Of a stretch of DNA of 64,000 nt, positions 2,292-21,297 are shown piece by piece (positions within the stretch are counted from its first letter, which is position 1; each line of letters opens with the position of its first letter). The notes beneath the pieces are model-generated. The model did no database searches. It worked only from the letters and a program-made list of their open reading frames with translations, and had not been told where the DNA came from. A program made the translations under genes and the position numbers. The stretch lies in assembly GCA_963758495.1 (NCBI GenBank), contig CAVWVI010000002.1:1-64000 (forward strand), written 5' to 3'. This stretch comes from Oligoflexia bacterium (GTDB lineage Bacteria > Bdellovibrionota > UBA1018).

Positions 2292-3452
2292 GTGGTTATT
2301 TATCCTTCCTCTCGAACTCGAGTGGGTGCTGAAATTCAAATTTCAGCTCATATTGAGTTACGTTTAAAACGACGAAACACACCTTCTGAGCTTTGGTTTC
2401 GTTTCCCAGAAAGCGAACATTCTCAAATATCGTCCGATCTGGATCCTTTTGTCGTGGCTGTACTTCTTCTGGCAATGCAAAACAATGAGCCTATTGAAGT
2501 ACGGGGCTCTCTCTCTAGAAAGCTTTTTCTGGGCTTGAAAGAATATCAGCAAATTTATCATTCTTGGTTTCCAGAGCGATTTCACATCATTGAGATTCAG
2601 CCTGAAAAACTCCGTGATGATAGGGACGAGGAAATTAAAGCTGCTGGTTGCGCATTTTCGGGTGGAGTGGATTCGTTTTACACTTTGCTCACCCTTTTAG
2701 ATCAATCGAATGGAGAGAAGAGTGGGAAACTTACACATGCGATATTTATGGCTGGTTTTGATATGCCTCTTCATTTAACGGCATCTATTAGAGACTTAAC
2801 TCAATCTTATGCTGAAATGATGATTTCGCTTGGAATTCATTTTGTCATTGGAAGTACTAATGTCAGGAGGTTTGTGAACTCGGTTGATTGGACCAATGCA
2901 CACGGACAGGCTCTGGTGGCGACGGCGCTCTTTTTTAAAAATACATGGAAGGAATTCTATATTCCCTCCAGTTATACAGGCACTACTTACCCGAAGTGGG
3001 GAAGTCATCCTAGGCTCGATCCCTTGCTTTCAACAGAATCGCTTAAAATGATACACCATGGTTCTCAAGAAAATCGAGTCAGTAAGCTTGAATCCATTTC
3101 TCAAGCACCTGAAAGTTACGAAAGATTAAGAGTTTGTTGGATCCAAGATCTTGGACTCAAAAACTGTGGAAAATGTGAAAAATGCATTCGGACTATGGTG
3201 GCTTTGGATATTCTAGAAGCGCTTCCTTATTATCGTACTTTTACTCAAGAAGGACTCAGTCGAAGCAAAGTAAGAAATCTGACTATGCGAAATTATCAAT
3301 CACGACTTTTTGCGTGGGAGCTCATGGGGGAGGCAATTCTTAGAGGAAAATTTAGAATCGTAGTGGATTTGGGGTATTCGCTTTTAAGGCGAGAGCTGTT
3401 TTATTGGTTAAGGTGTGTCAAAATGTTCATATTTGGAAAAATTAGAAAATAG
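2292..3452 (+). CDS. PP-loop ATPase, QueC-like superfamily; function unknown
   Basis: AFSGGVDS PP-loop; C-terminal RVCW...NCGKCEKC Zn motif; extra ~115-aa N-terminal domain absent from canonical QueC; GTG start. Confidence 0.65.
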   Translation: MVIYPSSRTRVGAEIQISAHIELRLKRRNTPSELWFRFPESEHSQISSDLDPFVVAVLLLAMQNNEPIEVRGSLSRKLFLGLKEYQQIYHSWFPERFHIIEIQPEKLRDDRDEEIKAAGCAFSGGVDSFYTLLTLLDQSNGEKSGKLTHAIFMAGFDMPLHLTASIRDLTQSYAEMMISLGIHFVIGSTNVRRFVNSVDWTNAHGQALVATALFFKNTWKEFYIPSSYTGTTYPKWGSHPRLDPLLSTESLKMIHHGSQENRVSKLESISQAPESYERLRVCWIQDLGLKNCGKCEKCIRTMVALDILEALPYYRTFTQEGLSRSKVRNLTMRNYQSRLFAWELMGEAILRGKFRIVVDLGYSLLRRELFYWLRCVKMFIFGKIRK

Positions 3453-3594: not shown

Positions 3595-6500
3595 GTGAAG
3601 TTTATTACGCATTTTGTCTTCATTAGTGCGGTTATTCTGTTTGCCCATCTGCCAGCTCAAGCCGGATGTGGAACCCAAACCTATACTTGGACGGGAGGCG
3701 GTGGAAATACAAATTGGACCAGAACCAGTAATTGGTCTCCTGTTGGATATCCAGGGCAAGTTGCGAATACAAGTGCATTGATTAATTCTGCTTCTAAAGT
3801 TCCTGCATATCCCGCAAATAATTTGAGTCTTGCATGTCTTGAAGTCAGTTCTGGTTCTCTTACTTTAACTCCTGGTTCGGCGGAGACATTAACGATTACT
3901 GGAGATTACTTTATGAATTTGAATGTGGGGTCCATTACCACAAATTCGAATCTCACCATCAATATGAATGGCACCACTCCGCAATCTTTTGAAAATGTAG
4001 ATTCCATTGATAATTTAACCATTTCTAATCCGAGTACCGTGGACTTGACTCAGACTTTTAGTATTACGACAGCACTCACTATTAATTCTACAGCAGGAAC
4101 AATTTATATTGATGGCACTGTATCTGTTCCTAATAATTTTACTATTCCGGCAAATACTACAGTTGAAATTCGGAATGGAGGTACTTTGGTGACTTATGGC
4201 AATGTCACCATTACTGGAGTGTTGAGGGTAGACGGGGGTGGGAAATTCAACCCTGCGGGGAGCAGTACAGTGACTGTGTCGACAGTAGGATCCTTGCTTC
4301 TTGAAGGGTCATCAGGGAATCTAGCGGTTATGGATTCGTTTGGAGGTATTGATTATGGATTAATTGTGAATGGATCATTAACTGCCAATTACTTTACTAT
4401 CGCTCGATGTCGAAATGTAACTCCCGGAGTCGATGTTTTTGGAACGATATTGGGACTTTCGAATGGTGAATTTCACTATTCTGTTAATGAATCGCTTACG
4501 CTTGAGAACGGCGCAACCAGTATAGGAACATGGAATAATGTGGGATTTTTTGATGATAAGAGTACAGGTATTATTGCAGTCAATGCGACTAATTACGATT
4601 TGGAAAGTAATCCCGGCATTATTAATGTGACTAACTATTCTGGAGTGAGTGCAACGAATGATACAAAAAATGTGATTCGATTTGGAGCTGCTGCTCCTAT
4701 TGCCTTACAGGTTGTTAATGCATCTATTAATCCTCCGTCATCTCCTGTGGGCGCAAATGTGAACCAAGTCTTTGGAGCTTTCGGTTTCAGTCTTTCAAAT
4801 AGTGGTACAAGCACTGCTATTAATTCAATTACGGTTACTTTAGATGGAGTGAATTCTGCTTCAGATGTCAGTAATGTAAGCTTGTATTATAATACGACAG
4901 GGGACTGTTACAGTGGGGGTATGGGAGGTCCGAGTTGGTCCGGGACCTTTTCCGGAAACCCTGCTACTGCAATCATTCCAATCACCCCAAATACTGTCGT
5001 GCTATCTAATAATACAAAACAATGTCTCCAAGTTTATTTTACAACGAGTGCAGGTGCTATTAATGGAGACACTATCGGCGCAAAAATTGCTGCGAGTGCA
5101 GATGTGGTGAATAGCCAAGGCTATGCTTACTCGATCTCTTCGTCTCCTCCAGTTTCTTTGGGGTTAGCGACTATTACCGGGTCCTCCTTGAATAAATGGA
5201 CAGGAGCCACTTCCGGTGCTTGGGCCACCACGAGCAATTGGAGTAACGGTGTAGTACCCACTTCGACTACAGATTGCCAAGTAGGAGCAGGAACGAATAT
5301 CCCCTTGTTTAGTGCGACAACGACCATCAATTGTCAGAATGCCCTCCTTGTTTCGGGAGGGTCGATGAACTTTGGAAATAAAGCCGTAACTTTCGATGTG
5401 AGCAGCTCAATATCAGTAGCGTCTGGATATTCGCTCTTGAATTCAGGCTCCTCCACCCTAGTGTTTAATGGATCTTCTCTTGAAAGTTCAGATTTTAATG
5501 GAGGGACGTGGGGAGGAAATGTCACCATCAATAATGCAGCAGGAGTGACTGCTCATAGTAATTGGACGATTGGTGGTAATTTAACCATTAGTGCGGGAAC
5601 ACTTACAGTTGCTTCTGGCCAAACGCTGATCATAGAGGGAAATTCTCTCACGATTAGTGGAACCGGGGCAGGATTGACGTTGATGCCTGGAGCAACCTTG
5701 GAGTTTACTAATGCAAGCTCACCGGTATTGACAGTAGGGAGTGGAGGAACACTCACCCTGGTCGGGACAGCGAATCAACTTGCTTATGTGACATCAGATT
5801 CAACAAGCCATCCTTATACGGTCAATTTCACTGGAACATCTAATATAGCTGCACAATATTATTCTTTTAGTAATCTTGGTGCTGCGGGGGTCACTCTAGG
5901 GGCCTCAACCACCATAAATACAACGAATGCATTGAGTAATGGCACCTTTATTTATCCTGTAGCGAATAACACTACTTTTTTAACCCTCAATCAAAAGGTT
6001 CCAGGGAATGTTTTGACCGGTATGACCTTTGATTCGGGTGGGTCTACGGCAACAGGTGTTCTTGCCGTTAAGGCCACCTCCTCTGTTCCTACACCGGCGG
6101 CTACGCTTCAGCTAAGTGGTTATGTCGGGGACTTAACAGGTTCGAGTCACTCTTCAAATACCGGGTCTAATTATACGATATCCTGGGGCACTTCCTCAAA
6201 TCAGTTGGAAATATCTCAACAAGTTTCGACCACGCCTGCAAGCGTCAGTCGGGGTGCCACCGTCACCATGGGAGAGTGGGGCATTCAAGAATTACAAGCG
6301 AGTTCTACTGCTACCAATATTACTTCTATTACAGTGACTATGACTGGCACTGATACGGGAGCCGATGTCAGCTCTGTACAACTGTATCAGGATACGGCTT
6401 GTAACGGAACAGTAGGAACACAGTTAGGGTCATCACAAACGTTTTCTGGAACTCCAGCGACAGCAGCCTTCTCTGGACTTTCTTACACGGTACCAGCTTC

Positions 6501-9500
6501 TGGGGCGAACGTTTGTATTATTGCTCAGTACACTATTGCGAGCACTGCAGCAGCGGGCACTATAGGAGCGAGTATTAATGCGGCTGGAGACGTAGTGAAC
6601 TCACAAGGGTACACTTTTTATAGTGCGAATGCACCTCCAGTGACTTTAGGTTCACCCGGAGGGGTAACAGGAACTTCTACCACTTGGACAGGTGGCGCGT
6701 TGACTACGAACTGGGCAACCTCAGAGAATTGGAATGCGGGAGTTCCCACTGCCGCTACAGATTGTGTAATCAATGCAACAAGCTTTAGTCCAACAATTGC
6801 CAGTGGTACTAATGCATTATGTAATCATCTCACGATAGCTTCAGGAGCGGCACTCACTTCTGCTTCGGGTAGCACGTTGACAGTTTCCGCAGATATTACT
6901 AATAATGGAACATTTAACCAAAATTCTACAGTTACACTTTATGGAAATTTATTTAATAATGGTACCTTCAATTCGCAAAACACCAATGCCCTGACTTTTG
7001 CCGAATCAGGCACTTCTACTACTCAAGCTATAGGCGGAACCAGTGCATTGACCATTGGGTCACTCGCTTTTAATAAAACCCTTGGGGGTGGTATCGTTCA
7101 AATTTCGAATCCTAGCGTGACTGTGACTACGTTAACCATGAGCGGTTCCATGGAGCTAGATGTTTTAGGAGCTGCGGTACTCATTTTACCTAATGGCGTT
7201 TCTATCCCCGCTAATAATAATTTTCAACTTGAACAAAATTCTATTTTAGAAATGGGGAGTGGAAAGACGATCACAGTTGCGGGTGGAACGTTTACAGTGA
7301 ATGGGGCTCAATCTCTTTATCCAACCCAAACTTATGCGAATTCAGGAGTGGTTACGAATACGGGTGGCACGGGTACTTGGACCCTCTCAGCAACTTCCGG
7401 TACAGTGAATCTGACGGGTTGGATTTTTGATTATGTAGGAACGGGAGGAATTACCCTCGGAAATGGGACCAGCTCAGTTACAATTTCAAATTTGGGGTAC
7501 GGTCAATTTTCTCATCTCCCAAGTACTTTTACTTCAACTGCTCTGACCATTAATACCAGTGGCACTGTACCGACTTCTGTTTCTAATATTGGTTGGAATT
7601 GGACGACGGCGACGCCTGGAATTAATAGTGTGAATAGCACAGCGGTGAATCCTCCTCCGGCTCCTACTTCCCAGGGATCTGGATATATACTGCTGAAAGC
7701 CGAGACTTGTAGTTCGACGATTTCCATTTCAAATTGGTTTGGAGATTGGTATCAGGGTGTCAATCAACCTCCTCCGAACTATGTGACCAGTAGTAGTGGT
7801 TCATGCGTAGTCTCCATGACTACGGCACTTTCACCTGTGAGTTTGACGAGCTTTACGGCAACGCCCTATAATGGCTCAGCTGTATTGAATTGGACGACGG
7901 GTTTGGAGTCTCAGAACCTCGGCTTTAATGTATATCGAAGCTTAAGCCCATCAGATGGGTTTGTTCAAATTAATTCCGAGCTGATTCGTAATCTTGTGGT
8001 TGCGTCTACTATTCATGGAATATATCAATTCTATGATAATGGCATTTCAAATAACATTACGTATTATTACGAAATAGAAGACATAGCGGTAAACGGAACT
8101 CGAACCTTACATGGACCTCTTTCCGTTACGCCAAGTGCAACCTTGTCGTCGGCTCCGCCCCCCAATACTGCCGCCATTGTTCAATCTAATTCAGATAACC
8201 CAGTTCCAGCGCCAAGTCCTACAAATACCTTTTCACCTGGCATTCAACAAGTTTCTAATGGAGTCTCTATTTTAGCAAAATCAGCACATACTTTTCGATT
8301 AGAAATTAATGTGCCTGCTTTTACTACTGCCGCTGCCGAAGTTGCACCTTATCTTAGAATGTCCATTCCAGGTTACTCACTGAGTACTATTACAGGTCAG
8401 CCTGAATTACCTCAGCAGGTTGTGATGGTTGAAATTCCCGCTGCTCAAACTGCGGCATATACTATCATCAGTCAAAATCAATCCTCTCAGAGTGGAATTC
8501 AAATTGCTCCTGTAGACAAGTGGACGGCGTCAGCTGGAGCAATGGTTCCGTCATGGTTTTTAGATTCAGCATTTTATGCAGTAGATGCTCTATTGCCTGC
8601 TAATACTGTTAGCCTAGGTACGATTACGCAGAGTCAAGGTAAGTATTATTTACCCGTGATTGTACAGCCCATCTCATATGACCCAGTTCAACATACAATT
8701 CGAGCTACTTCGCAGATTGTGATGGATATTTCTCTTGATGGCGATGCAAGCTGGCATCCTGTAAACCCCAATCCGGCAGGTGGAGTATGGGGCCAAGAAG
8801 ATGGATTGAAAATAACTGTGAATCAGGCAGGAGTTTACCAACTCTCATTCGGCGATTTTGTTAATGCCGGGGTGGATGGAGCATTTCAGGGTAAGGATCT
8901 GACACGATTTAAACTCTATTCTCAAAACTCAGAGATTCCTCTGAATGTCACCAGCAGCGTAAATGGAGGGGCGTTTGGAGCGGGGGATTCATTTCAATTT
9001 TATGCGCCCTTTTTTGATACAGGAGAGAGCCACTTCAATACCTTGATGTTGATTGCGGATTCTCCATCTTCTGCCCTAGGGTTGCGCATGTCATCTCTTA
9101 ACAGCGGTCCGTCAGGGGCGTCTCTCACATCAGCACCCGGTTATGTAAAAATTTCTCGAGTAGAACAAAATACTTTAGAGAATTTGGGTTCTCCTTATGA
9201 AGAGGGGGTAGATCACATTTTTTGGGCTCAAATATATGCTTCTCCGACTGATCAATCACAGGGTACCTTTGCTACTTCTATTCAACTTCCTGAACTCATG
9301 CAAACAGGTACTGTTACACTTCAAGCATTTATGGCGGGAAGCTATGGCTATTACACTCAAGAGACTTTTCACCATTTGCGCATTTGGGTTAATTCTTCAA
9401 CGGTCCCTCAAGGAGATGTTGTATTCTTTGGAAATTCTTCATACAACGCGGTTGTTAATATTCCCGCCAATGTTTTTGTGCCCGGATCAAATCTGATCAC

Positions 9501-11256
9501 TTTCCAATCTGTTGGCGATATGAATGGCAATGATTATGATATTCAGTTATTGAACTGGTTTTCTGTTGATTATACGCACAACTGGACTGCGGATAATGAT
9601 TTGGCAGATGTCATTTCTAGTCAACCGGGAGTGGCTTATCAAGTTTCAGGATTTTCTAATAACGATGTGGTTGCTTATGATGTAACAGATTATACTGCGA
9701 CTGCAATGCTGAGTAATTTAAATATTTTGCCTGATGGGTCTGGTGGATACTCTGCTGGCTATTCAACTACGGCAAATAACTCACAATATGGACATCATAT
9801 CTATTTAACACGAACAAGTGCGATCCCCTTGCCACAAAGTATAGAATTAAATGCCGGCAGTAATCTTTCCAGTACAGCACAAGGTGCGGATGTCATTTAT
9901 ATTGGAACTTCAGATCTTTTAGATGCTGTTGAGCCTCTTGCGAATTTACGGGCGCAACAAGGATTTCGAGTCCAGCTAGTTGATGTTGAAGATATTTATT
10001 CAGAGTTTGGGCAAGGTTTGAGAGATGCTCAAGTAGTAAAGAATTTTATCCAATATGCAGTTGCAAACTGGACGCCTCCTTCTCCTTCCTATATTGTACT
10101 GGTAGGTGATGGGACAGATGATCCAAGAAATGATTTAAATTATGGAGTATCTGGAACAGTTCCAATTTACATGATGGTTGGATCTGCAGTGGATTTTGCG
10201 AGTGATAATTGGTTTGTTTCTTGGGATCCAAATGACAACCTTCCTAATTTAAGCATTGGACGTATTCCAGGTAATACTCCAGATAAAATTGATGCCTATG
10301 TTACAAAGGTTTTAAATTATGAAAGTAATAGCGCTCGGCCCGCAGGGGCGGCGGCTGGGAATATCACTCTTGTTGCTGATATAGATCAAGATGGTGGGGA
10401 AAATTTTGTTCCTAGAGCCGATGCCTTGGCGTCTCAAATCACTTCTTTGAATAGTTCTCTTGCTCCTACTAAATTATACCGAACTCTACTCACGGATCCT
10501 CAACTGAAACAAGGAATTAATAATGCATTTAATTCAGGCTCAATCATCATTCATTACATCGGGCATGGTGCTGAAAATATGTGGGCTGGCAGTACAGTAT
10601 TTACAAATGCGGATGCAGATTTATTACAAAATACACGCCTTCCTGTTGTCATCGCAATGGATTGTCTCAATGCGGCGTTCTTTTATGCGGATCCTGGCTT
10701 TCAAACCTTATCGGATCGTTTATTATTTAATGCAAACGGGGGTGCGATTGCATTTTGGGGATCTACGTCATTAACTAGTCCTCAAATGCAGGCTCCTTAC
10801 CAAACGGCTCTTTATCAAATCATTGCATCACAGCCTGGAGGGATTCGATTGGGAGATGCGGTTCGGTTAGCAAAAATTCAAGGAGGCTGGGATCCTTACA
10901 AAGGTGAAGCTGTCGAATCATGGACGCTGCTAGGGGACCCGATGCTCAAAATGATTTTACCTGGCGTGGCTACTGCGGCGACTTCAACAGTAGTATTTAC
11001 ACCTCCATCTCAGGGCCCACAATCTGGAACATCTTCTGACAATTCAAATCAAAGCAGTGGCGGAGGAAGTGGCGGAGGTGGTGGTTTCCTGGGCTGTGGC
11101 ACTGTAGATTGGGATAAAAATGATTCGAATGGTCGGGGAGGCGGCGGCGGATTACCCCCTACTGGTGCAACAGCAGAAATGGGTATTCTTATCTTAATGC
11201 TCTATTTCAGTAGACGATTCGTTTCATTGCCTCAAGAAAAGTGGATGCATTTTTAA
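3595..11256 (+). CDS. Giant secreted/surface protein: repetitive T/S/G/N-rich beta-strand passenger, C25 propeptide, C25 (gingipain-family) cysteine peptidase and C-terminal sorting tail
   Basis: Signal peptide; three WTG...W...NW repeats; PVSLTSFTA domain; GQPELP propeptide-like motif; YIVLVGDG, SDNWF, SIGRIP, HYIGHG (His2324), AMDCLN (Cys2357) and WTLLGDP C25 motifs; Gly-rich linker, GCG, hydrophobic helix, RR. Confidence 0.85.
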   Translation: MKFITHFVFISAVILFAHLPAQAGCGTQTYTWTGGGGNTNWTRTSNWSPVGYPGQVANTSALINSASKVPAYPANNLSLACLEVSSGSLTLTPGSAETLTITGDYFMNLNVGSITTNSNLTINMNGTTPQSFENVDSIDNLTISNPSTVDLTQTFSITTALTINSTAGTIYIDGTVSVPNNFTIPANTTVEIRNGGTLVTYGNVTITGVLRVDGGGKFNPAGSSTVTVSTVGSLLLEGSSGNLAVMDSFGGIDYGLIVNGSLTANYFTIARCRNVTPGVDVFGTILGLSNGEFHYSVNESLTLENGATSIGTWNNVGFFDDKSTGIIAVNATNYDLESNPGIINVTNYSGVSATNDTKNVIRFGAAAPIALQVVNASINPPSSPVGANVNQVFGAFGFSLSNSGTSTAINSITVTLDGVNSASDVSNVSLYYNTTGDCYSGGMGGPSWSGTFSGNPATAIIPITPNTVVLSNNTKQCLQVYFTTSAGAINGDTIGAKIAASADVVNSQGYAYSISSSPPVSLGLATITGSSLNKWTGATSGAWATTSNWSNGVVPTSTTDCQVGAGTNIPLFSATTTINCQNALLVSGGSMNFGNKAVTFDVSSSISVASGYSLLNSGSSTLVFNGSSLESSDFNGGTWGGNVTINNAAGVTAHSNWTIGGNLTISAGTLTVASGQTLIIEGNSLTISGTGAGLTLMPGATLEFTNASSPVLTVGSGGTLTLVGTANQLAYVTSDSTSHPYTVNFTGTSNIAAQYYSFSNLGAAGVTLGASTTINTTNALSNGTFIYPVANNTTFLTLNQKVPGNVLTGMTFDSGGSTATGVLAVKATSSVPTPAATLQLSGYVGDLTGSSHSSNTGSNYTISWGTSSNQLEISQQVSTTPASVSRGATVTMGEWGIQELQASSTATNITSITVTMTGTDTGADVSSVQLYQDTACNGTVGTQLGSSQTFSGTPATAAFSGLSYTVPASGANVCIIAQYTIASTAAAGTIGASINAAGDVVNSQGYTFYSANAPPVTLGSPGGVTGTSTTWTGGALTTNWATSENWNAGVPTAATDCVINATSFSPTIASGTNALCNHLTIASGAALTSASGSTLTVSADITNNGTFNQNSTVTLYGNLFNNGTFNSQNTNALTFAESGTSTTQAIGGTSALTIGSLAFNKTLGGGIVQISNPSVTVTTLTMSGSMELDVLGAAVLILPNGVSIPANNNFQLEQNSILEMGSGKTITVAGGTFTVNGAQSLYPTQTYANSGVVTNTGGTGTWTLSATSGTVNLTGWIFDYVGTGGITLGNGTSSVTISNLGYGQFSHLPSTFTSTALTINTSGTVPTSVSNIGWNWTTATPGINSVNSTAVNPPPAPTSQGSGYILLKAETCSSTISISNWFGDWYQGVNQPPPNYVTSSSGSCVVSMTTALSPVSLTSFTATPYNGSAVLNWTTGLESQNLGFNVYRSLSPSDGFVQINSELIRNLVVASTIHGIYQFYDNGISNNITYYYEIEDIAVNGTRTLHGPLSVTPSATLSSAPPPNTAAIVQSNSDNPVPAPSPTNTFSPGIQQVSNGVSILAKSAHTFRLEINVPAFTTAAAEVAPYLRMSIPGYSLSTITGQPELPQQVVMVEIPAAQTAAYTIISQNQSSQSGIQIAPVDKWTASAGAMVPSWFLDSAFYAVDALLPANTVSLGTITQSQGKYYLPVIVQPISYDPVQHTIRATSQIVMDISLDGDASWHPVNPNPAGGVWGQEDGLKITVNQAGVYQLSFGDFVNAGVDGAFQGKDLTRFKLYSQNSEIPLNVTSSVNGGAFGAGDSFQFYAPFFDTGESHFNTLMLIADSPSSALGLRMSSLNSGPSGASLTSAPGYVKISRVEQNTLENLGSPYEEGVDHIFWAQIYASPTDQSQGTFATSIQLPELMQTGTVTLQAFMAGSYGYYTQETFHHLRIWVNSSTVPQGDVVFFGNSSYNAVVNIPANVFVPGSNLITFQSVGDMNGNDYDIQLLNWFSVDYTHNWTADNDLADVISSQPGVAYQVSGFSNNDVVAYDVTDYTATAMLSNLNILPDGSGGYSAGYSTTANNSQYGHHIYLTRTSAIPLPQSIELNAGSNLSSTAQGADVIYIGTSDLLDAVEPLANLRAQQGFRVQLVDVEDIYSEFGQGLRDAQVVKNFIQYAVANWTPPSPSYIVLVGDGTDDPRNDLNYGVSGTVPIYMMVGSAVDFASDNWFVSWDPNDNLPNLSIGRIPGNTPDKIDAYVTKVLNYESNSARPAGAAAGNITLVADIDQDGGENFVPRADALASQITSLNSSLAPTKLYRTLLTDPQLKQGINNAFNSGSIIIHYIGHGAENMWAGSTVFTNADADLLQNTRLPVVIAMDCLNAAFFYADPGFQTLSDRLLFNANGGAIAFWGSTSLTSPQMQAPYQTALYQIIASQPGGIRLGDAVRLAKIQGGWDPYKGEAVESWTLLGDPMLKMILPGVATAATSTVVFTPPSQGPQSGTSSDNSNQSSGGGSGGGGGFLGCGTVDWDKNDSNGRGGGGGLPPTGATAEMGILILMLYFSRRFVSLPQEKWMHF

Positions 11257-11682
11257 ATAAAGTTGTCTGAATTGAAGCAATGATCTCAATATGAGTCGAG
11301 CTATTTTAGATTTTAAGTGTTCAGGTGGTATAGACCAATACGAAAATAACGCGATTGAAGCATCTACAAAGTCCGTTTGAATTTTTAGTCTTTTTTTTGA
11401 AGATGTTTTTTGCAGTGCAATAACTTTCCCCCAGATTTGTTGATCAGATAAGACTTCCCATGCTAGGGATGAATCCCCTTTGATGATCCAAGATCCAGGC
11501 ACTTCTTTGCTTCGCCTGAGCACACGATGAACTGTCCAATCTTTCAAATCAGTCCTTCCCAGTATCAGATCTCCGGACTTGATTTGGGGTAGGTCCTGGA
11601 TATTCAACCATTGGACTGCAACCCGATCGTGCGGCGCGATCAGAGGGTGCATGCTCATGCCTTCTACCTGTATCCATTCCAA
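11224..11682 (-). CDS. S24/S26-family peptidase (signal-peptidase-like, Ser/His type)
   Basis: VEGMSMHP (catalytic Ser), VHRV and IIKGD motifs; TTG start; no N-terminal TM anchor. Confidence 0.8.
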   Translation of the reverse strand: MEWIQVEGMSMHPLIAPHDRVAVQWLNIQDLPQIKSGDLILGRTDLKDWTVHRVLRRSKEVPGSWIIKGDSSLAWEVLSDQQIWGKVIALQKTSSKKRLKIQTDFVDASIALFSYWSIPPEHLKSKIARLILRSLLQFRQLYLKMHPLFLRQ

Positions 11683-11702: not shown

Positions 11703-11861
11703 TTAAGATTTCAAGCGACTCGCATTACAAGTGGGGACACTTGCTTTTCTCCCACCCGTAGAGACGCCATTGCAGAGTGCCGCTATTGCAGTCAATTCTT
11801 CGGATTTAAGTGATGGTTTTTCGTATTTTAATTTATTTTTTTTTGATTTATTCCGGTCCAT
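11703..11861 (-). CDS. Putative RiPP precursor peptide, 52 aa: MDRNKSKKNKLKYEKPSLKSEELTAIAALCNGVSTGGRKASVPTCNASRLKS
   Basis: ATG at 11861 preceded by an AAAAAGGA SD; YEKPSL matches the YxxPxL RRE-binding leader motif; lies between the kinase and peptidase genes. Confidence 0.8.
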   Translation of the reverse strand: MDRNKSKKNKLKYEKPSLKSEELTAIAALCNGVSTGGRKASVPTCNASRLKS

Positions 11862-11881
11862 TGAGTGGTTCCTTTTTCTAT

Positions 11882-12775
11882 TTATAGTGTATCGTTCAAT
11901 ACCATTGGCCAAAAGTCTGAGTTTTTTTTGAAATGGAGATTTTTGAAAGAACACGGAGCAGATGCGAACAAAGCTGCAAGATTGAATCGTGCTTCTACTT
12001 CGTTATCCCATTGATCAGTCATAGCGCTTGCTAAAAGACTAAAAACTTTTTGTGATAATGGAACTGATTTAAGGGAGTGCTTTATATCTTGTTTTAATGG
12101 GTAAATTCCCGCTAGAGGGGCACTGATATTAGGAGGAGAAAATCTGGAATACCCACACCCTAATGGAGCAGCATGTACTTCCGCACTTTGAGTGATGGGA
12201 TTGAAATGCACTATAACGGCATCATCTCCCAATAAAAGTGCATTCGAATCAGCCTTAGAAATCATTTCCACTGTTGTCGATTTTCCCGCACCACTCTGGC
12301 CAAAAAAAACATATCCAAAGCCATCCCGAATCACTGCGGCACCGTGAAGTAGAAAAGAAAAATTCTCTAAGAGCATATTTGGGATAAACCAGCGTAGGCA
12401 ATTATGTATAGCGTCGTCAAGGTTGGGTGCTAGCATCGCAATAGCGCGATTGCCCGTCCGTTTTGCGGCAAAGTCTCGTTGAATTACGGTATGATCTCTG
12501 ATTTCAAATTCTGGATCAGGGTCCTCCCAAATAAAAGATAAAGCTCCCGTAGGTGAATAGGGGGTAGCAAAGATTTCTCCATGATTGGATATTTGGGAAT
12601 CAGCAGAGATTAAGTAGTTTTCGAAAAGCCGGTGAATATGATCTGTTAATTCATTAGAATAAGTGACCCAATCGATTCGAATCCCCGCAATCTTTATTGG
12701 AATTCTAGTTCCTTGAGTCTCAAACTCTCTATGGGAAATTGCATTGAGTAGGAATTTACGCCGATCAATAGACAA
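11882..12775 (-). CDS. HprK-related P-loop kinase (RiPP-cluster/ScmC-like type)
   Basis: LLHGAAV...FFGQSGAGKST (HprK His plus Walker A) and LLGDD motifs; TTG start with GGAGGGAG SD. Confidence 0.8.
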   Translation of the reverse strand: MSIDRRKFLLNAISHREFETQGTRIPIKIAGIRIDWVTYSNELTDHIHRLFENYLISADSQISNHGEIFATPYSPTGALSFIWEDPDPEFEIRDHTVIQRDFAAKRTGNRAIAMLAPNLDDAIHNCLRWFIPNMLLENFSFLLHGAAVIRDGFGYVFFGQSGAGKSTTVEMISKADSNALLLGDDAVIVHFNPITQSAEVHAAPLGCGYSRFSPPNISAPLAGIYPLKQDIKHSLKSVPLSQKVFSLLASAMTDQWDNEVEARFNLAALFASAPCSFKNLHFKKNSDFWPMVLNDTL

Positions 12776-12885: not shown

Positions 12886-13161
12886 ATGAATCTAATTCAA
12901 TCGATAAAACCGACTCGAAGAGACAAGCTTCCTTGGCGTGAAATGGATGGCAGGGCAGTGATTATTGACCCTAAAAAAGGCAAAGTTCATGAATTGAATC
13001 CAGCGGCTACTTTGATTTGGAAAACTGCTGATGGAAGTCGATCTTTGCAGGAAATTGCAGAACTTATGGAAAACGAGTTTGAGATATCGTTAGAACAAGC
13101 ATTAGCTGATGCAGTCGAATTCCTTGCAGTGCTTAAGACACATCATTTGATGATTGAGTAG
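12886..13161 (+). CDS. PqqD-family RiPP recognition element (RRE)
   Basis: HELNPAATLIWKTADGSRSLQEIAELM...ALADAVEFLAVLKTHHL PqqD signature; ~91 aa. Confidence 0.9.
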   Translation: MNLIQSIKPTRRDKLPWREMDGRAVIIDPKKGKVHELNPAATLIWKTADGSRSLQEIAELMENEFEISLEQALADAVEFLAVLKTHHLMIE

Positions 13162-13181: not shown

Positions 13182-14210
13182 ATGTCTATTTTATCCCGTT
13201 ATCGAGAATGGTCTTCATCCAGTCTAGTTCCCTTGAATACAACTATTGAGCTAACCTATCGATGTAATGAACGTTGCAGTCATTGTTATTTAGCGACCTA
13301 TGATGATAATGCGGATGGTCGTCCTCCATTGAAATTGGTAGAGTGGAAAAAAATATTGGATCAAATTGCTGATGCCGGTGGTTTAATGCTGACTCTAATT
13401 GGAGGCGAAGCAATGATGCATCCACAGTTTTGGGACATTAGTGAGTATGCAGCGGAAAAAAATTTCGCACTGATTCTTATTACGAATGGTTTATTAATCA
13501 ATCCACCCGTAGCGGAAAAAATGGCTCAATTAGGATTCTATCAAGTAGCGATTAGTATTTACTCCTTCTATCCAGAAATCCACGATAAAATGACCCAGCG
13601 CAAGGGATCTCATGCTAAAACAATCCGGGCTATAGAATTGCTTCATGAGCGTGGAATTGACATAAAACTGAATTGTTTACTGACGCAAGATAATATTGAT
13701 ACTTGTTTTGATTTAGAGAATTGGGCAGTGGAGCGTCAATTGCAAGTCCAATTTGACCCTATGGTCACTCCCAAAACAGACGGGTCTTTGGATTCCACTC
13801 TCAAGCGTGCGACCCCTGAGCAATTATTTCATTATTATTCACAATTGAAAAATAAGGGGAGGGGGCCTGCTCCCATCGATTCAGGCACTCCAGAGGATCC
13901 AGTTTGTAATGCCGGAAGAGGAAAATGCGCAGTGAATGCCTATGGTGATTTACTGACCTGCTTAGAAATTCGTAAATCACTCGGAAACTTAAGAGAATAT
14001 TCATTTAATGATCTTTGGCATTCTGCAAATGCCGAGGCAATTCGTGCGTACCGTAATATGGATCTTAAGTTTGAGAGTCAATGTGGAGATGGATCTTTTT
14101 GTGACCATTGTCCAGGAATGGCCGGAGCGGAAGTAGGAGACCCAATGGCTCCTGTGCCCTATTTGATGGAACTTGCGCAGATTAAACGTCGAGTTTTCGA
14201 AAGAAATTAA
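13182..14210 (+). CDS. Radical SAM/SPASM-domain peptide maturase
   Basis: CNERCSHC (CxxxCxxC), GGEA, ITNG; SPASM-like CNAG...GDLLTC...GNL...CGDGSFCDHCPG. Confidence 0.9.
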   Translation: MSILSRYREWSSSSLVPLNTTIELTYRCNERCSHCYLATYDDNADGRPPLKLVEWKKILDQIADAGGLMLTLIGGEAMMHPQFWDISEYAAEKNFALILITNGLLINPPVAEKMAQLGFYQVAISIYSFYPEIHDKMTQRKGSHAKTIRAIELLHERGIDIKLNCLLTQDNIDTCFDLENWAVERQLQVQFDPMVTPKTDGSLDSTLKRATPEQLFHYYSQLKNKGRGPAPIDSGTPEDPVCNAGRGKCAVNAYGDLLTCLEIRKSLGNLREYSFNDLWHSANAEAIRAYRNMDLKFESQCGDGSFCDHCPGMAGAEVGDPMAPVPYLMELAQIKRRVFERN

Positions 14211-14218
14211 TCCCTAAA

Positions 14219-15253
14219 ATGAGACTTCATTTATTTGTGCTGCAGCTACTCAATGTAGAATCATTTAATTCAGATTTAACCTTCGAGAGCAAGTTAGAGG
14301 TTCAAAGTGGAACAGTGGAGGAGTGGACTGATGCCTATGATTTTGCAGTAGCACTTCATGCTGCTCTGCCTTTTCTTACGACGCTTCGTAAAACCTCCGT
14401 CTGGGAGCAGTTGCCGGATCGAGTGAAAATAAATTTTGAAAAAAATTTAACAAAAGAGCGAATGATTTTATGTTTACTTGCAGAAGAGTTGCAGTTCTCA
14501 GTCCAGTTATTAGCTCAAAATAAAGTTCCCGTAATTGTTTTAAAGGGAATGGATCTTTCGCATAGATTCTATCCCGATAAAATGCTGCGCCCAATGACAG
14601 ATGTAGATCTTTTAGTGAAAGAAGAAAGCTTTAAAAAAGCAGTTCAAGTGCTTTTAAAGGCTGGGTATAAAATTATTGGAAAGCAACGGAATGATCGCTA
14701 CCGGATTGAAATGTCCCGTTTTGAAGATGGCCTGGCAGTTGAACTTCATTCGAGGCTTCTTTTGTCTGACGAAAAATCTGATTTAATTCAATATTGGGAG
14801 CAATCTGTCCCTCACCCTCTTTCTGGATTTCATCAAGATGTCAGAGTTTTATCAAGTCAGGATCTTCTGGTTTATTTAATTCGGCACGCTACAGTGCAGC
14901 ACCGACTGGAATCTCCCATTTGGTTAAATGATATTTATTATCTACTTCAGGCTATAATAAAAAATGAGGTTTATTTTGATTGGGATCTATTTTTAAAGGA
15001 AGTTACAAAAAGGAAGATAGTTTCCGCTAGTTGGTTTACATTATCCTTGCTTCCTTGTGAGTTGGTTCCAGTGTATGTATTAAAATCATTACATAAAAAA
15101 ATGGGATACATTCGTTTTCAATTTCTTCGTGCGCAAGTGAACTGGGTAAATTGGTTTTTAACGCGACGTATTTCAAAATTAGAAATTTTTAAGATTAGGT
15201 TTTTACTGAGAGATAATTCCTTCCAATTCGCACACTACTTGAAAAGTAGATAG
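14219..15253 (+). CDS. Nucleotidyltransferase (NTP_transf_5-like, RiPP/lasso-cluster type)
   Basis: IVLKG...YP...RPMTDVDLLV, VELHSRL and WLNDI motifs. Confidence 0.85.
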   Translation: MRLHLFVLQLLNVESFNSDLTFESKLEVQSGTVEEWTDAYDFAVALHAALPFLTTLRKTSVWEQLPDRVKINFEKNLTKERMILCLLAEELQFSVQLLAQNKVPVIVLKGMDLSHRFYPDKMLRPMTDVDLLVKEESFKKAVQVLLKAGYKIIGKQRNDRYRIEMSRFEDGLAVELHSRLLLSDEKSDLIQYWEQSVPHPLSGFHQDVRVLSSQDLLVYLIRHATVQHRLESPIWLNDIYYLLQAIIKNEVYFDWDLFLKEVTKRKIVSASWFTLSLLPCELVPVYVLKSLHKKMGYIRFQFLRAQVNWVNWFLTRRISKLEIFKIRFLLRDNSFQFAHYLKSR

Positions 15254-17118: not shown

Positions 17119-18132
17119 TCAATGACTTCGTTTAAATAGATTGAGTAAATAAGTAAGAGCAGGGAAGATAATTATGGATCCCACTATCAATGCATAAAAA
17201 AGATAACGGAGCGTTACATCAGGAGCTGCCGAGTTGTAAATAGTAATGGGGACGTTTTGAGTTGTATTTACGATAAGAATTGGAAATTGAACTTTAAACC
17301 ATCCCATAAGTATAAAACCGACTTGAGATGCCGCCAGAATTCTTGATTGTACTACTTGATGGCTCAATAAGCTCTTCCAGAGAGGGAAAAGGAGCAACGT
17401 TGCGATGAGCATACAAATCAAGGCCCATAAATCCTGAGTAAATTTTTGAATTAAACTGAAGTGATCTGTGGCCGAAGCTATAAATACAAATGCTCCTGAA
17501 ATGACGGCGAGTAGATTCGCAATTTGTGCTCTCCGAATGAAGACCTTTTGGAGTTCTTTATCCTGAGTTTCCCCTATTAAATAGACTGAGGCTAGAAAGG
17601 TAAACAGGATGCATACAAAGATCCCTATGGAAAAAGAGAAGTAATTGAACCAGGGGGCCACATAATTTAAAAAATACCCTTCCGGAGGGCCTACTTCAAT
17701 TCTCCTCTCTGACATAACACCACCCATAATAATACCCAAAAAGAGAGGAGTTGTGATGCTCGAAAGAATAAAGATTGTAGAGTAATAGTTTTGTGACCGA
17801 TCTCGTATTGCATCATAGTGCCTGAATGTAAATGCGCTCCCTCGTAAAATCACACCTATCAGCATGATCGTCAAAGGAATATGAAAGGTAATGGAAAGCT
17901 CACTATAGGCCTTAGGAAATCCATTAAAAAGAATCACAATTGCCAGAATCAGCCACATATGATTGGCTTCCCAAACTGGCCCCATGGCATGGGTTATTAA
18001 TTCCTTTTGTTCTTCTTTCTTTTTCTTTCCTAAAAATAATTCAAGGATTCCTGCACCAAAATCTGCACCTGCTAACAAACAATATAAAAGAATTGAAAGT
18101 CCAAGAAAGAATGCAATTAATTCAGCCCACAT
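17119..18132 (-). CDS. cydB: Cytochrome bd ubiquinol oxidase subunit II
   Basis: GADFGAG, PVWEANHMWL and LRGSAF motifs; overlaps the end of cydA. Confidence 0.93.
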   Translation of the reverse strand: MWAELIAFFLGLSILLYCLLAGADFGAGILELFLGKKKKEEQKELITHAMGPVWEANHMWLILAIVILFNGFPKAYSELSITFHIPLTIMLIGVILRGSAFTFRHYDAIRDRSQNYYSTIFILSSITTPLFLGIIMGGVMSERRIEVGPPEGYFLNYVAPWFNYFSFSIGIFVCILFTFLASVYLIGETQDKELQKVFIRRAQIANLLAVISGAFVFIASATDHFSLIQKFTQDLWALICMLIATLLLFPLWKSLLSHQVVQSRILAASQVGFILMGWFKVQFPILIVNTTQNVPITIYNSAAPDVTLRYLFYALIVGSIIIFPALTYLLNLFKRSH

Positions 18133-19414
18133 GACGAAACTGCCTGACCATGAGCCAAATGATAATAAATGATAAAAAAAGATAAACGCCTGTAAAAAGA
18201 CTCATTGGATATATAAGCCCTGGCATGGGTGTTACCGCATCCTTCGTTCGCATAATTCCGTAAATGATCCATGGCTGTCGTCCTACTTCTGTGACGGTCC
18301 AGCCCGCTTCCATCGCAAGAAATCCTATAGGAGTTACCCATGCGATAGTTTTCAAAAATGAAGACCGATAAAGTCGCTCTTTATTTCTCATCAATAGAAA
18401 AAGAGAATAAGCACCTATGCCAGCGAGTAGTGTTCCGAAACCAATCATGAGCTGAAAAGCCATGTGAACGACAGGCACAGAAGGCCAATCTTCTTTTGGA
18501 ATACTATCTAAGCCAATGACTTGAGCATTAAAATCTCCATGAGCTAAAAAACTCAGTAGTTTAGGAATATGAAATCCAAAACTAACAGTTTCTGAATTCT
18601 GTGAAGGTATTCCTCCCACTAAAAAGGGTGCAGGTTGGCTCGTTTTAAAGAGAGCTTCCATTGCCGCAAGTTTAATGGGTTGTCTCACGGCAATATCTTT
18701 AGCTAAACGATCGCCATGAAGTGGTTGTATAATTGCTGCAACCGAGCCAACTGTCAGTGCAATTTTAAATGCTTTCTTATGGAATTCATGGGTTCGATTT
18801 TTAATGATACCGATTGCGTGGATCCCTGCTACCGCAAAACCCGTAGCGGCAAATGCTGCAATCGTCATATGAATGCCTTGATTGAGTGCCGCAGCATTAA
18901 ACATCGCAGCCCAAGGATCTATATTTCGAGCAGATCCATTGACCCAGTCAAAACCAGATGGACTATTCATCCAGCCATTAGCACAAACAACAAATAAGCC
19001 TGATAAAACTCCACTGATTCCAACTACGAGCCCACTTGCCCAATGAATCCAAGGAGAGACTTTTTCCCAGCCATAAAGAAATATTCCAAGTGCTATGGCT
19101 TCTAAAAAGAACGCTGCCCCTTCCCAGGAAAACGGCATACCAATGATTGCACCCGCATGTTGCATAAATCTTGGCCAAAGAAGTCCTAGCTCAAACGAAA
19201 GTGCAGTTCCAGAGACAGCCCCTACGGCAAAAAAAATAGCAACACCCTTAGACCAGGTTTTTGTTAAATTTTGATAAACGATTTGGCCTGTCCTTAACCA
19301 ACGCCAATGCGCAATTGCCATGAGAAATGGCATAGCAATGCCAACTGAGGCAAAAATAATATGAAATCCCAAGGATATGGCCATTTGTGTGCGCGCAGCC
19401 AATAAATTTGTCAT
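18122..19414 (-). CDS. cydA: Cytochrome bd ubiquinol oxidase subunit I (short Q-loop)
   Basis: FHIIF, FELGLLWP, QPIKLAAME and GWTVTEVGRQPW motifs. Confidence 0.95.
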   Translation of the reverse strand: MTNLLAARTQMAISLGFHIIFASVGIAMPFLMAIAHWRWLRTGQIVYQNLTKTWSKGVAIFFAVGAVSGTALSFELGLLWPRFMQHAGAIIGMPFSWEGAAFFLEAIALGIFLYGWEKVSPWIHWASGLVVGISGVLSGLFVVCANGWMNSPSGFDWVNGSARNIDPWAAMFNAAALNQGIHMTIAAFAATGFAVAGIHAIGIIKNRTHEFHKKAFKIALTVGSVAAIIQPLHGDRLAKDIAVRQPIKLAAMEALFKTSQPAPFLVGGIPSQNSETVSFGFHIPKLLSFLAHGDFNAQVIGLDSIPKEDWPSVPVVHMAFQLMIGFGTLLAGIGAYSLFLLMRNKERLYRSSFLKTIAWVTPIGFLAMEAGWTVTEVGRQPWIIYGIMRTKDAVTPMPGLIYPMSLFTGVYLFLSFIIIWLMVRQFRHVG

Positions 19415-19448
19415 ACTGAATCAGACTCCAAGAAGCATATCGATATCA

Positions 19449-20381
19449 CTAGATTGATTGGAAGAAAATGGCATTGATAAAGCTCCAGGCTCCAATAAAA
19501 ATGCAGATTAAAAAGACTAGAAGCCAAGCTTTGAAGAAGCTCTTATTTGAAGGGAGTACAGAGTACCAAGTTTTAAAAAGCAAATTTGGATTTGCACCTT
19601 CCCATACTGCGCGCATTTTTGGTAAAAGCTTGTTTAAAAAATCTATGATTTCTTCTTCTCCGTAAGCTACGTCTGCATCTGCTGGTGTTCCCCAGTAGTT
19701 AGAAAGGCGACCTCGACGGCGGTTTATATTTCTTTTCCATCTTGACGGTTCTCGATGGATGGTTGGCATGGTTTTATAATGTGGATGAACTAGATGATTT
19801 GCAATGGCTAGTGCAATGGAGGTGTCTCGTTTTCCTCCATGCTCCAAGGGATCAGGCCAAAAGGGAGAATCTAAGACACGTTGAAAGTCTACTGATCCCG
19901 AGGATGCTGAAATCAAAGAGGGCGTAATCTTCTCACCTCCCATGATACGGTAGCTCCATCGATGCCATTTACCTGATTTGCGTATGATTGTGCCCGCGTC
20001 TTCGATTGCGGTCAGTTGTCGTGGCCCTAAATGTCCAGAAAAACAAGTGAAGTGAAAAAATCCATTTCTAATTAAGGAGTGGCAGGCGTCTACGAGCCAA
20101 TCTCGCAAAACATGAGGTCGTACTGTAATGGATAGATGAGTTGTATTGCTGTCAATTCCCAAGGGTGCTGGAGGCATCAGTACGGCTACCCATCCAGGCA
20201 TATCATTTTCCAAGTGGCAGGCTGCAAGATAACAAAGTCGATTCGCTTCTTCTAAGTCAAGTCCTATCGGAAGGTGAGGGCCGTGGTCTTCCAAAGGACC
20301 AACAGAAAAGAAAAAAACGGTCTTTTTTTTGGGGAGTGTAGAAAACTGGAGGGAGGAGATTTTTGCAAACTCAATGGGCAT
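19449..20381 (-). CDS. Creatininase-family amidohydrolase with C-terminal TM helix
   Basis: GPLEDHGPHLPIGLD, SGHLG and EHGG motifs. Confidence 0.8.
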   Translation of the reverse strand: MPIEFAKISSLQFSTLPKKKTVFFFSVGPLEDHGPHLPIGLDLEEANRLCYLAACHLENDMPGWVAVLMPPAPLGIDSNTTHLSITVRPHVLRDWLVDACHSLIRNGFFHFTCFSGHLGPRQLTAIEDAGTIIRKSGKWHRWSYRIMGGEKITPSLISASSGSVDFQRVLDSPFWPDPLEHGGKRDTSIALAIANHLVHPHYKTMPTIHREPSRWKRNINRRRGRLSNYWGTPADADVAYGEEEIIDFLNKLLPKMRAVWEGANPNLLFKTWYSVLPSNKSFFKAWLLVFLICIFIGAWSFINAIFFQSI

Positions 20382-21297
20382 GAACTTGAATTCCTAGGAG
20401 TTTAACTGCATTTTCTCCTAGGATAAGCTTTGCTTGTTCTTCATTCAATAGCCCTGTTTCAATGCAATCTTGAATGCGGTTTCGGCCAATGATTTGATTA
20501 TTGCCAACGAGTGGCCAGTCAGTTCCAAAAAGAACCCGGTTTGCTCCAATTCGACGAGCAGCTTCTCCAATAACTTCAGCGGGTTGCCATGACGTATCAA
20601 CCCATAAATTTGGATATTTTTCACAAAGATCAAGGGCAGTATCTGGATTATGAAAATTCATGTGTGCTAAAATAAATTTTGTTTTGGGAAAAGCTTTGAA
20701 CCATTTTTCGAAGCGATCAGCATGCGCTTGCTGCGAGTATTTGTAGAGGAAATGAGCATGGATACAGCCTGTATGAATAATGACCGGCAGCCCCAATTCA
20801 GTCGCTGTTTTTATGAGAGCCCGATACCTCGGGGAGCTTGGACTTTCTCCATCCAAAGCAGTATGTATTTTGAGCACTTTTGCCCCTGCATCAGCAAATC
20901 TTTGAAGAGTGAGGCCCGGCTTGTTTACACTTTTAGGAATATTTACAGCGGGAATCAGTCGTGAGTTCTGGCTGCAAAGTTCCATGATAAAATCATTGGA
21001 TATAAACGGTGGATGAGCGATGATTAATGATTGATTGATTCCCGCCTCATCCATGGAGTCCATCAAATCAGATGACGTGCACTCCACTAAGAGGTGGGGA
21101 AGAGGCAGGAGACTACTGAATTCATCTAGATTTTTTCTTACGATTTCTGGAAGGTATCGCAGCTGAGTTTGCAGTCCATGTATAGAGTTCGCGAGAGGCC
21201 TTATCCAATTGCGGGCGTGCTTACGCAAATTACCTAATCGTGCGTTAGAAATAATCTCTTCAAAAACATGTGCGTGAAAATCAATAACTAGAGTCAT
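20371..21297 (-). CDS. Amidohydrolase_2-family metal-dependent hydrolase
   Basis: IDFHAH, KIH, IIHTG, ILAHM, VDTS and LFGTDWP motifs. Confidence 0.85.
   Translation of the reverse strand: MTLVIDFHAHVFEEIISNARLGNLRKHARNWIRPLANSIHGLQTQLRYLPEIVRKNLDEFSSLLPLPHLLVECTSSDLMDSMDEAGINQSLIIAHPPFISNDFIMELCSQNSRLIPAVNIPKSVNKPGLTLQRFADAGAKVLKIHTALDGESPSSPRYRALIKTATELGLPVIIHTGCIHAHFLYKYSQQAHADRFEKWFKAFPKTKFILAHMNFHNPDTALDLCEKYPNLWVDTSWQPAEVIGEAARRIGANRVLFGTDWPLVGNNQIIGRNRIQDCIETGLLNEEQAKLILGENAVKLLGIQVHAH

Follow-up and report, generated by a model that had tools for sequence, protein, structure and literature searches.

A conserved 52-codon gene of Bdellovibrionota as the probable precursor of a phosphorylated, radical-SAM-modified RiPP

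Among described systems, the LPPs (linear polyphosphorylated peptides; LppA/B/K/S/D/N; Popov et al. 2026, PMC13381572) are among the closest to the locus considered here, and the kinase-RRE-peptidase logic is already published for them. According to the available text of that study, the RRE binds YxxP in a leader with the consensus YxxPxVLxHQxIxFETxxS, the HprK-like kinase puts up to four phosphates on one Ser, the phospho-Ser being at core position 3, and LppS, a SipW-type Ser-His-Asp peptidase, cuts 16 residues past the leader Tyr with Phe at -3; deletion of LppN changed nothing detectable, and the clusters sit in capsule loci. For paeninodin and pseudomycoidin (PadeK, PsmK, PsmN), the available part of PMC6993621 reports that PsmK phosphorylates the C-terminal Ser of pseudomycoidin, that PsmN is required for adding one or two hexoses onto the phosphate, and that both enzymes depend on their Asp pairs.

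The cassette studied here lies in a window of 64,000 nucleotides (the whole stretch of DNA that was analysed, from one contig of an Oligoflexia bacterium). It shares with the LPP systems, as these are set out in the available text of PMC13381572, a discrete RRE, a kinase of the HprK-like type, an NTP transferase and a SipW-type peptidase, so that the LPP gene set is present, together with a YxxP leader, the same apparent cleavage register, the lack of a lasso cyclase and a frequent polysaccharide-locus context. Unlike the LPP clusters, which are described there without a cyclising enzyme, it adds a radical-SAM/SPASM enzyme (51 of 53 loci) and a two-Cys/Lys core; the conserved hydroxyl residue is C-terminal here and core Ser3 in the LPPs; the MsbA-type exporter of the LPPs is absent here, where an ABC-2 permease is found in 24 of the 53 loci; there is a giant C25 partner; and the hosts are Bdellovibrionota, whereas those of the LPPs are Bacillota. 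The agreement with the LPP leader consensus is limited to YxxP and a hydrophobic residue at -3, and core position +3 is Asn. The main text of PMC13381572 makes no mention of radical SAM or C25, while its supplement holds one Bdellovibrionales peptidase with two RREs, for which the precursor is not given, and shows C25 and Radical_SAM as column heads of a domain matrix.

The likeness to paeninodin and pseudomycoidin, as far as described in PMC6993621, includes a YxxPxL-type leader, a discrete RRE, a C-terminal Ser (Thr in 19/65 homologues here), an HprK-like kinase with DD and a nucleotidyltransferase with DxD; the kinase His, P-loop and DD are intact. In contrast to those pathways, a radical-SAM enzyme and a SipW-type peptidase stand here in place of the macrolactam synthetase, the B2 peptidase and the acidic core acceptor. 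Two lasso features, a [Y/W]xxPx[hydrophobic] leader and a discrete RRE, are thus found. There is no macrolactam synthetase among the cluster neighbours (the PF00733 matches of the genome are on another contig), the 92% complete genome has no PF13471 match for a B2 transglutaminase-like leader peptidase, and the Asp/Glu acceptor at core positions 7-9 is absent, since the predicted core, Leu29 to Ser52, has neither residue. On these grounds a lasso peptide was rejected, in agreement with an earlier note on this DNA, which had stated that no lasso macrolactam can form. That note had reasoned that no Asp or Glu follows the leader; this is true of the predicted core only, because the YEKPSL motif is in fact followed by Glu21 and Glu22, both of which lie within the predicted leader.

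Sactipeptides and ranthipeptides (SkfB, AlbA, StsB) offer the third comparison, with a radical-SAM/SPASM enzyme, an RRE and a Cys-containing core, although the RRE here is a separate gene. CxxxCxxC, SPASM/twitch Cys residues and conserved core Cys residues are all present, the thioether itself being a prediction, and the enzyme passes none of the model cut-offs (AlbA 85 against 850 bits, SkfB 65 against 300, StsB 89 against 625). To our knowledge, a kinase and a nucleotidyltransferase are not part of sactipeptide or ranthipeptide pathways. The SynChlorMet (ScmC/D/E/F) and HprK-related kinase A/B systems, which we know through the NCBIfam models TIGR04248-04251, TIGR04352 and TIGR04355 and their weak cross-matches, do combine an HprK-like protein, a PqqD-like RRE and a radical-SAM/SPASM enzyme in one cassette. 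Membership in SynChlorMet was rejected, as all scores were well below the cut-offs (ScmC 15.5 of 125 bits, ScmD 38 of 100, ScmE 75 of 400, ScmF 76 of 400) and the host genome has one such radical-SAM enzyme where SynChlorMet has two. We know of no precursor identified for the SynChlorMet or HprK-related kinase A/B cassettes, and our search found no papers that name them. A different cassette was seen in genome G002 (L105:3686-10160). It combines three genes for radical-SAM enzymes with those for an RRE, an HprK-like protein and an ABC ATPase, and its candidate precursor has a leader of the form YxxPxV, contains three Cys and ends in Ser; its scores all fall below the SynChlorMet cut-offs, and G002 has no C25 match.

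By analogy, the pathway would work like LPP/pseudomycoidin-type tailoring joined to sactipeptide/ranthipeptide-type chemistry, while falling outside the lasso, LPP and SynChlorMet groups proper. No description of this cassette was found in the literature that we could search, which leaves most subscription journals outside its coverage; the main texts of PMC7470986 and PMC12710340 mention no kinase, C25 or signal peptidase.

The precursor gene and its conserved residues

The gene occupies positions 11703 to 11861 on the minus strand and encodes, from ATG to TAA, a peptide of 52 residues ending in Ser; its translation is identical to that of the earlier note. A Shine-Dalgarno-like AAGGA (11870 to 11874, minus strand) is placed 8 nt ahead of the ATG, and the stop codon of the kinase gene is 20 nt upstream of it. 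The ORF caller had extended the frame to 83 residues from a GTG at 11954, but that codon lies within the kinase gene, and in the homologous locus L004 the open frame starts at the ATG equivalent to the proposed one. Since the homologues agree, the ATG was taken as the start and the longer version was rejected, as the earlier note had already preferred.

Among the 16,938 short ORFs of the host genome, a loose form of the leader motif was counted in 25; the motif alone therefore says little, and conservation was taken as the test. When a family profile was run against the whole host genome, the 52-codon ORF was the sole match (E 5e-20), the gene being single-copy, and a homologous ORF was present in every radical-SAM-anchored locus spanning the region, except one distant outlier locus. 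Across 401 genomes of the phylum Bdellovibrionota, a profile built from 18 homologues matched 52 at E 0.01, and the 47 with E 4e-5 or better were retained as carrying the peptide; the five dropped were four with internal stops and G002 with its different precursor. A search of 1.84 billion representatives (at 50% identity) returned 68 matches, 65 of them short peptides. In equal-length pairs of at least 65% identity, drawn from 58 distinct gene sequences, pN was below pS in 128 of 128 cases (medians 0.24 and 0.82), the invariant residues are encoded by many synonymous codons, and all three stop codons are in use.

The 52-codon ORF is therefore a real, conserved gene under selection. A chance frame or a spacer that is not translated carries practically no weight as an explanation: the peptide has no match in Pfam or NCBIfam and loose leader motifs are frequent by chance, as such an origin would have it, but conservation across many families, a fixed stop position and the synonymous-codon variation with pN below pS refute it. 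We regard the ORF as almost certainly a genuine RiPP precursor, as the earlier note had claimed; its proposal that homologous loci be searched for a conserved peptide ORF ended with that ORF being present, and the claim was therefore not refuted. The 62 diverse homologues that were compared with Pfam and NCBIfam also gave no meaningful match. Among ten representatives that were looked up, two belonged to named clusters, both called "hypothetical protein", and the ESM Atlas returned unnamed clusters only (0.89-0.91), with Acidobacteriota as the commonest taxon, which is a mere lead. Three long proteins, P0043, P0053 and P0070 (573, 1877 and 1442 aa), each gave between 7 and 11 matches to one short part of the precursor profile, which may possibly be due to repeats or to noise.

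In the close homologues, Y13, P16, E21, C30, N31, G32, R38, K39, C45, L50 and S52 are invariant, while in the 62 diverse homologues only Pro16, Cys30, Lys39 and Cys45 are. The leader motif Y13-x-K-P16-x-L18 (11808 to 11825, minus strand), for which the role of YxxP in the available text of PMC13381572 suggests RRE binding, is conserved as a YxxPx-type leader; the family form, however, is YxKPx[I/V], Leu being the sixth residue in only 3 of 65 representatives. Exactly two Cys are present in 59/65 representatives, and the chain ends in Ser (43) or Thr (19) in 62 of the 65, which bears out the Cys pair and the terminal Ser proposed before. The "two Cys-Asn units" were rejected as a family motif: Asn follows the first Cys directly in 52 of 64 representatives and the second in 17 of 64. 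Lys39, which was absent from that description, lies nine residues past the first Cys in 47/64; the Arg38 position holds Lys, Gly, Ala or Phe in 16/64. The distance between the two Cys is mostly 13-23, the distance from Lys to the second Cys is also widely variable, and no aromatic residue is conserved in the family alignment. From this pattern follows the signature of the family, a leader YxKPx[I/V] and a core C-[N]-G...[R]K...C...L-x-[S/T]-stop.

The maturation cassette and the proposed route

By their sequences, five predicted maturation genes with intact active-site residues are linked to the precursor. On the minus strand, a SipW/archaeal-type signal-peptidase-like protein (S24/S26; 11224 to 11682), the predicted leader peptidase, has weak Pfam/NCBIfam matches, Ser10, His52 and Asp70 and no evident membrane anchor, and its triad is kept in 23/23 aligned homologues; the HprK-like kinase (11882 to 12775), predicted to phosphorylate the terminal Ser, has weak matches below cut-offs, a precomputed PF27840 label, His144, a P-loop and Asp184-Asp185, with His144 and Asp185 in 51/51 homologues and Asp184 in 47. 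On the plus strand are the PqqD-family RRE (12886 to 13161; PF05402, E 9e-17), with a start at ATG 12886 where the ORF caller used TTG 12850 and with the lasso RRE TfuB1 as its best PDB match (E 0.005); the radical SAM/SPASM enzyme (13182 to 14210), with an intact CxxxCxxC and a reduced SPASM Cys set (242, 249, 260, 307, 310); and an NTP_transf_5 nucleotidyltransferase (14219 to 15253; PF14907, E 5e-39), PsmN/LppN-like by family, with Asp128-x-Asp130 and a DxD in 41/41 homologues.

The cassette genes were counted over 53 non-redundant loci, none longer than 20 kb, that were left once duplicates (four), short metagenome loci (four) and L105 had been set aside. Of these loci, 52 have the kinase, 51 the radical-SAM enzyme, 49 the peptidase, 49 the nucleotidyltransferase and 47 the RRE, and 45 have all five. 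Some of the missing genes are locus-edge effects, as in G396, where the kinase, the RRE and the nucleotidyltransferase lie just past the fetched stretch. The cassettes L018, L019, L063 and L066 have no RRE gene within the fetched locus, and two of the genomes with such cassettes, G327 and G405, have two PqqD-family genes each elsewhere. A plasmid search with the kinase as query gave one weak match. Of the other genes in the window, one that precedes the giant gene upstream (2292 to 3452, plus strand) is an ORF of 386 aa containing an SGGxDS motif together with a CxxCxxC cluster; it has no Pfam/NCBIfam match and was not found in related loci. The genes at 17119 to 21297 (minus strand; cytochrome bd oxidase subunits, a creatininase-family gene and an amidohydrolase gene) are not recurrent neighbours there.

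We favour, with somewhat better than even confidence, the reading that this ORF encodes the precursor of a RiPP which depends on the RRE, is phosphorylated and is cross-linked by the radical-SAM enzyme. The RRE would bind the YxKPx[I/V/L] leader; the kinase would phosphorylate the C-terminal Ser52, perhaps repeatedly; the radical-SAM enzyme would install one or more Cys-derived thioethers, the likeliest acceptor being either Lys39 or the Asn31-Gly32 region; the nucleotidyltransferase would be needed to cap the phosphate, by analogy with a hexose as the cap; and the SipW-type peptidase would cut Ala28|Leu29, freeing a core of 24 residues. The terminal Ser/Thr points to the phosphorylation and hexose chemistry of pseudomycoidin, and equivalents of the Asp-pair motifs of PsmK and PsmN are conserved in the kinase and the nucleotidyltransferase of the cassette; by this analogy, Ser52 is probably phosphorylated and possibly glycosylated as well.

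The cut after Ala28, which would define the core Leu29-Ser52 (11706 to 11777, minus strand), follows from the LPP cleavage register and appears likely by that analogy; unmodified, this core would have a monoisotopic mass of 2405.23 Da. The spacing of the register is matched by 52 of 58 precursors: the residue at -3 is F, V, Y or I in all 52 of these, and the one at -1 is Ala in 50. In the other 6, the stretch from leader to Cys is longer, which means that the register does not hold for the whole family. At L100, L101 and L102 (G310, G412 and G253), a precursor subtype was noticed that ends in Thr and has a lengthened spacer between leader and Cys; these three genomes, a small sample, have no giant C25 match, and L100 and L101 are located in polysaccharide loci. 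Against the route count the null result for LppN, the lack of a close characterised relative for the radical-SAM enzyme and the lack of an ABC-2 type exporter in the 92% complete host genome.

The radical-SAM enzyme keeps CxxxCxxC in 49/49 homologues and has no close characterised relative, every family score being far below its cut-off; its best PDB matches include SkfB (E 7e-13), and these matches span the SAM core only. In a quick tree search, supported by SH-aLRT alone, the homologues fall into two clades, one with 28 sequences and one with 21 (SH-aLRT 99 each), which are about 27% identical and differ in their SPASM Cys sets. Each locus has one clade, yet the cores are near-identical, and the idea that a second enzyme of the other clade is encoded elsewhere was rejected, since none was found in the host genome or in five other genomes. 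Two distant clades on the same core weaken any inference of the chemistry from the enzyme. Because the Cys residues are invariant and no aromatic residue is conserved, we lean slightly towards at least one Cys-derived thioether in the product.

The same precursor, kinase and peptidase would also suit a Cys30-Cys45 disulfide formed after export, the radical-SAM enzyme then performing non-thioether chemistry such as a C-C/C-N crosslink, an epimerisation or a backbone change at Lys39, Arg38 or Asn31-Gly32. We judge this rather unlikely, yet with an appreciable share of the probability. The predominance of exactly two Cys and the invariant Lys39 with its usual spacing speak for it, and the variable distances of the second Cys from the first and from Lys would fit a tolerant disulfide loop. 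On the other side, about three Cys are kept in the first auxiliary-cluster region of both clades, a layout discussed for thioether formers in the available text of PMC13692751 (the mapping onto these clades is ours), and the family lacks a conserved aromatic residue for the usual C-C crosslinks. The thioether thus remains the preferred chemistry; the earlier note had named both it and a disulfide as options.

The giant C25 protease

Next to the cassette, a gene on the plus strand (3595 to 11256) encodes a giant C25 cysteine protease of 2553 aa, which was assigned as a linked partner from domain matches, its catalytic dyad and co-occurrence. The protein consists of an N-terminal signal-like segment, a long repeat region, a propeptide and a C25 domain (His2324, Cys2357), and ends in Gly-Cys plus a hydrophobic anchor. 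Its end (window positions 11000-11256, plus strand), which recurs in homologues, runs from a stretch rich in Gly through a Cys and a hydrophobic segment to a basic tail; this end resembles Cys-containing C-terminal sorting signals, but no NCBIfam model matched it above chance. The gene converges on the cassette and has a 33-nt 3' overlap with the peptidase gene at 11224-11256.

With the catalytic region as query against the same 401 genomes, the giant was found in 41, of which 38 are peptide-positive and 3 peptide-negative, while 351 genomes have neither; that is, 38 of 47 peptide-positive genomes carry it against 3 of 354 others, in counts where related genomes are not independent. The other 9 of the 47 have no giant match, several of them being nearly complete. 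C25 domains of any kind occur in 126/401 genomes, so only the giant subfamily tracks the peptide; any C25 domain as partner was therefore rejected, and four short C25 proteins in peptide-positive, giant-negative genomes were not counted as support. The phylum has many C25 proteins of smaller size (about 500-1000 aa), which occur independently of the cassette; in family f18, a C25 domain is found in 33 of 34 genomes.

A functional tie of the RiPP cassette to the C25 protein seems to us on balance probable. The site of action of the product is probably the cell envelope, where it would be connected in some way with the giant protease. A reading with less support in our estimate, though one to be taken seriously, holds that the two merely share a mobile envelope island and that the role of the RiPP is connected with polysaccharide of the cell surface, which has been suggested for LPPs and paeninodins too; this reading touches function alone and does not conflict with the chemistry preferred above. 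Many loci adjoin glycosyltransferase, SLBB and Wzz-type genes, which recalls the capsule loci reported in the available text of PMC13381572, C25 domains in general are widespread, and G361, a 100% complete genome, has the giant with no peptide or kinase match. However, the giant gene stays linked although its position varies: it may precede the cassette, follow it or lie within it, and both orientations occur. The co-occurrence also persists in G100, G240 and G184, whose giant gene is carried by a different contig and has no cassette gene in the surrounding 10 kb or so, while the peptide is still present. In family f22, moreover, 19 of 19 giant-positive genomes carry the peptide and none of the 74 peptide-negative ones has the giant, kin again not being independent. 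In L076 (G396) and L084 (G106) the giant gene is inside the cassette and co-oriented with its neighbours.

As to the form of such a tie, the giant resembles the PorU sortase and the gingipains RgpB and Kgp in belonging to the C25 fold family, in having a propeptide and in its His/Cys dyad, which is intact in 40/40 giant domains. At the position of RgpB Asp163, the S1 residue that binds Arg and sets the Arg specificity, the giant domains have Phe in 39 of 40 and Tyr in one. PorU has a conserved Arg 32 residues past the catalytic Cys, according to the available text of PMC4560394, and at this position Thr (35) or Ser (5) is found in the 40 domains; the PorU model NF033707 scores 209 against a cut-off of 420 bits. 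Compared with the proteins described there, the giant thus lacks both the PorU Arg and the RgpB Asp163, and has a C-terminal membrane anchor and a long repeat region. The active-site residues, as judged from the alignment, support neither an inhibitor loop specific for Arg/Lys nor a PorU-like sortase, and both candidates were weakened accordingly.

The modified peptide could in principle be a substrate-like inhibitor or a substrate of the protease through its Gly-Arg-Lys loop, in the manner of gingipains; the tight co-occurrence, the giant gene within the cassette of G396 and G106 and the location of Arg-Lys in a Cys-bounded loop would suit this proposal, which we nevertheless hold to be improbable given the residue at the Asp163 position and the replacement of Arg38 in a quarter of the homologues noted above. 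Equally small is the chance we give to an envelope adaptor, in which the phospho-glycosylated C-terminal Ser would be linked to polysaccharide or lipid of the surface, the radical-SAM crosslink would present the invariant Lys, and the membrane-anchored C25 protein would use this amine as the acyl acceptor that anchors proteins or itself, that is, a sortase-like system with a ribosomally made cross-bridge whose product is not a released metabolite. Against it stand the missing PorU Arg, the lack of a dedicated exporter in the host genome and the several near-complete genomes with the cassette and no giant match.

Significance of the precursor

To the account of the earlier note, the analysis added the invariant Lys, the cleavage register, the two radical-SAM clades and the giant-protease link. 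We found no experimental report on an enzyme set that joins radical SAM with an HprK-like kinase, a nucleotidyltransferase and a SipW-type peptidase; for this set the precursor offers the substrate, with its cleavage site predicted and its few invariant residues listed. The two radical-SAM clades, so far apart in sequence and acting on nearly the same core, form a natural comparison for SPASM chemistry. With one small construct, the chemistry of this radical-SAM family, the additions made by NTP_transf_5 proteins to phosphopeptides and the link between a RiPP and a giant surface protease would all become testable.
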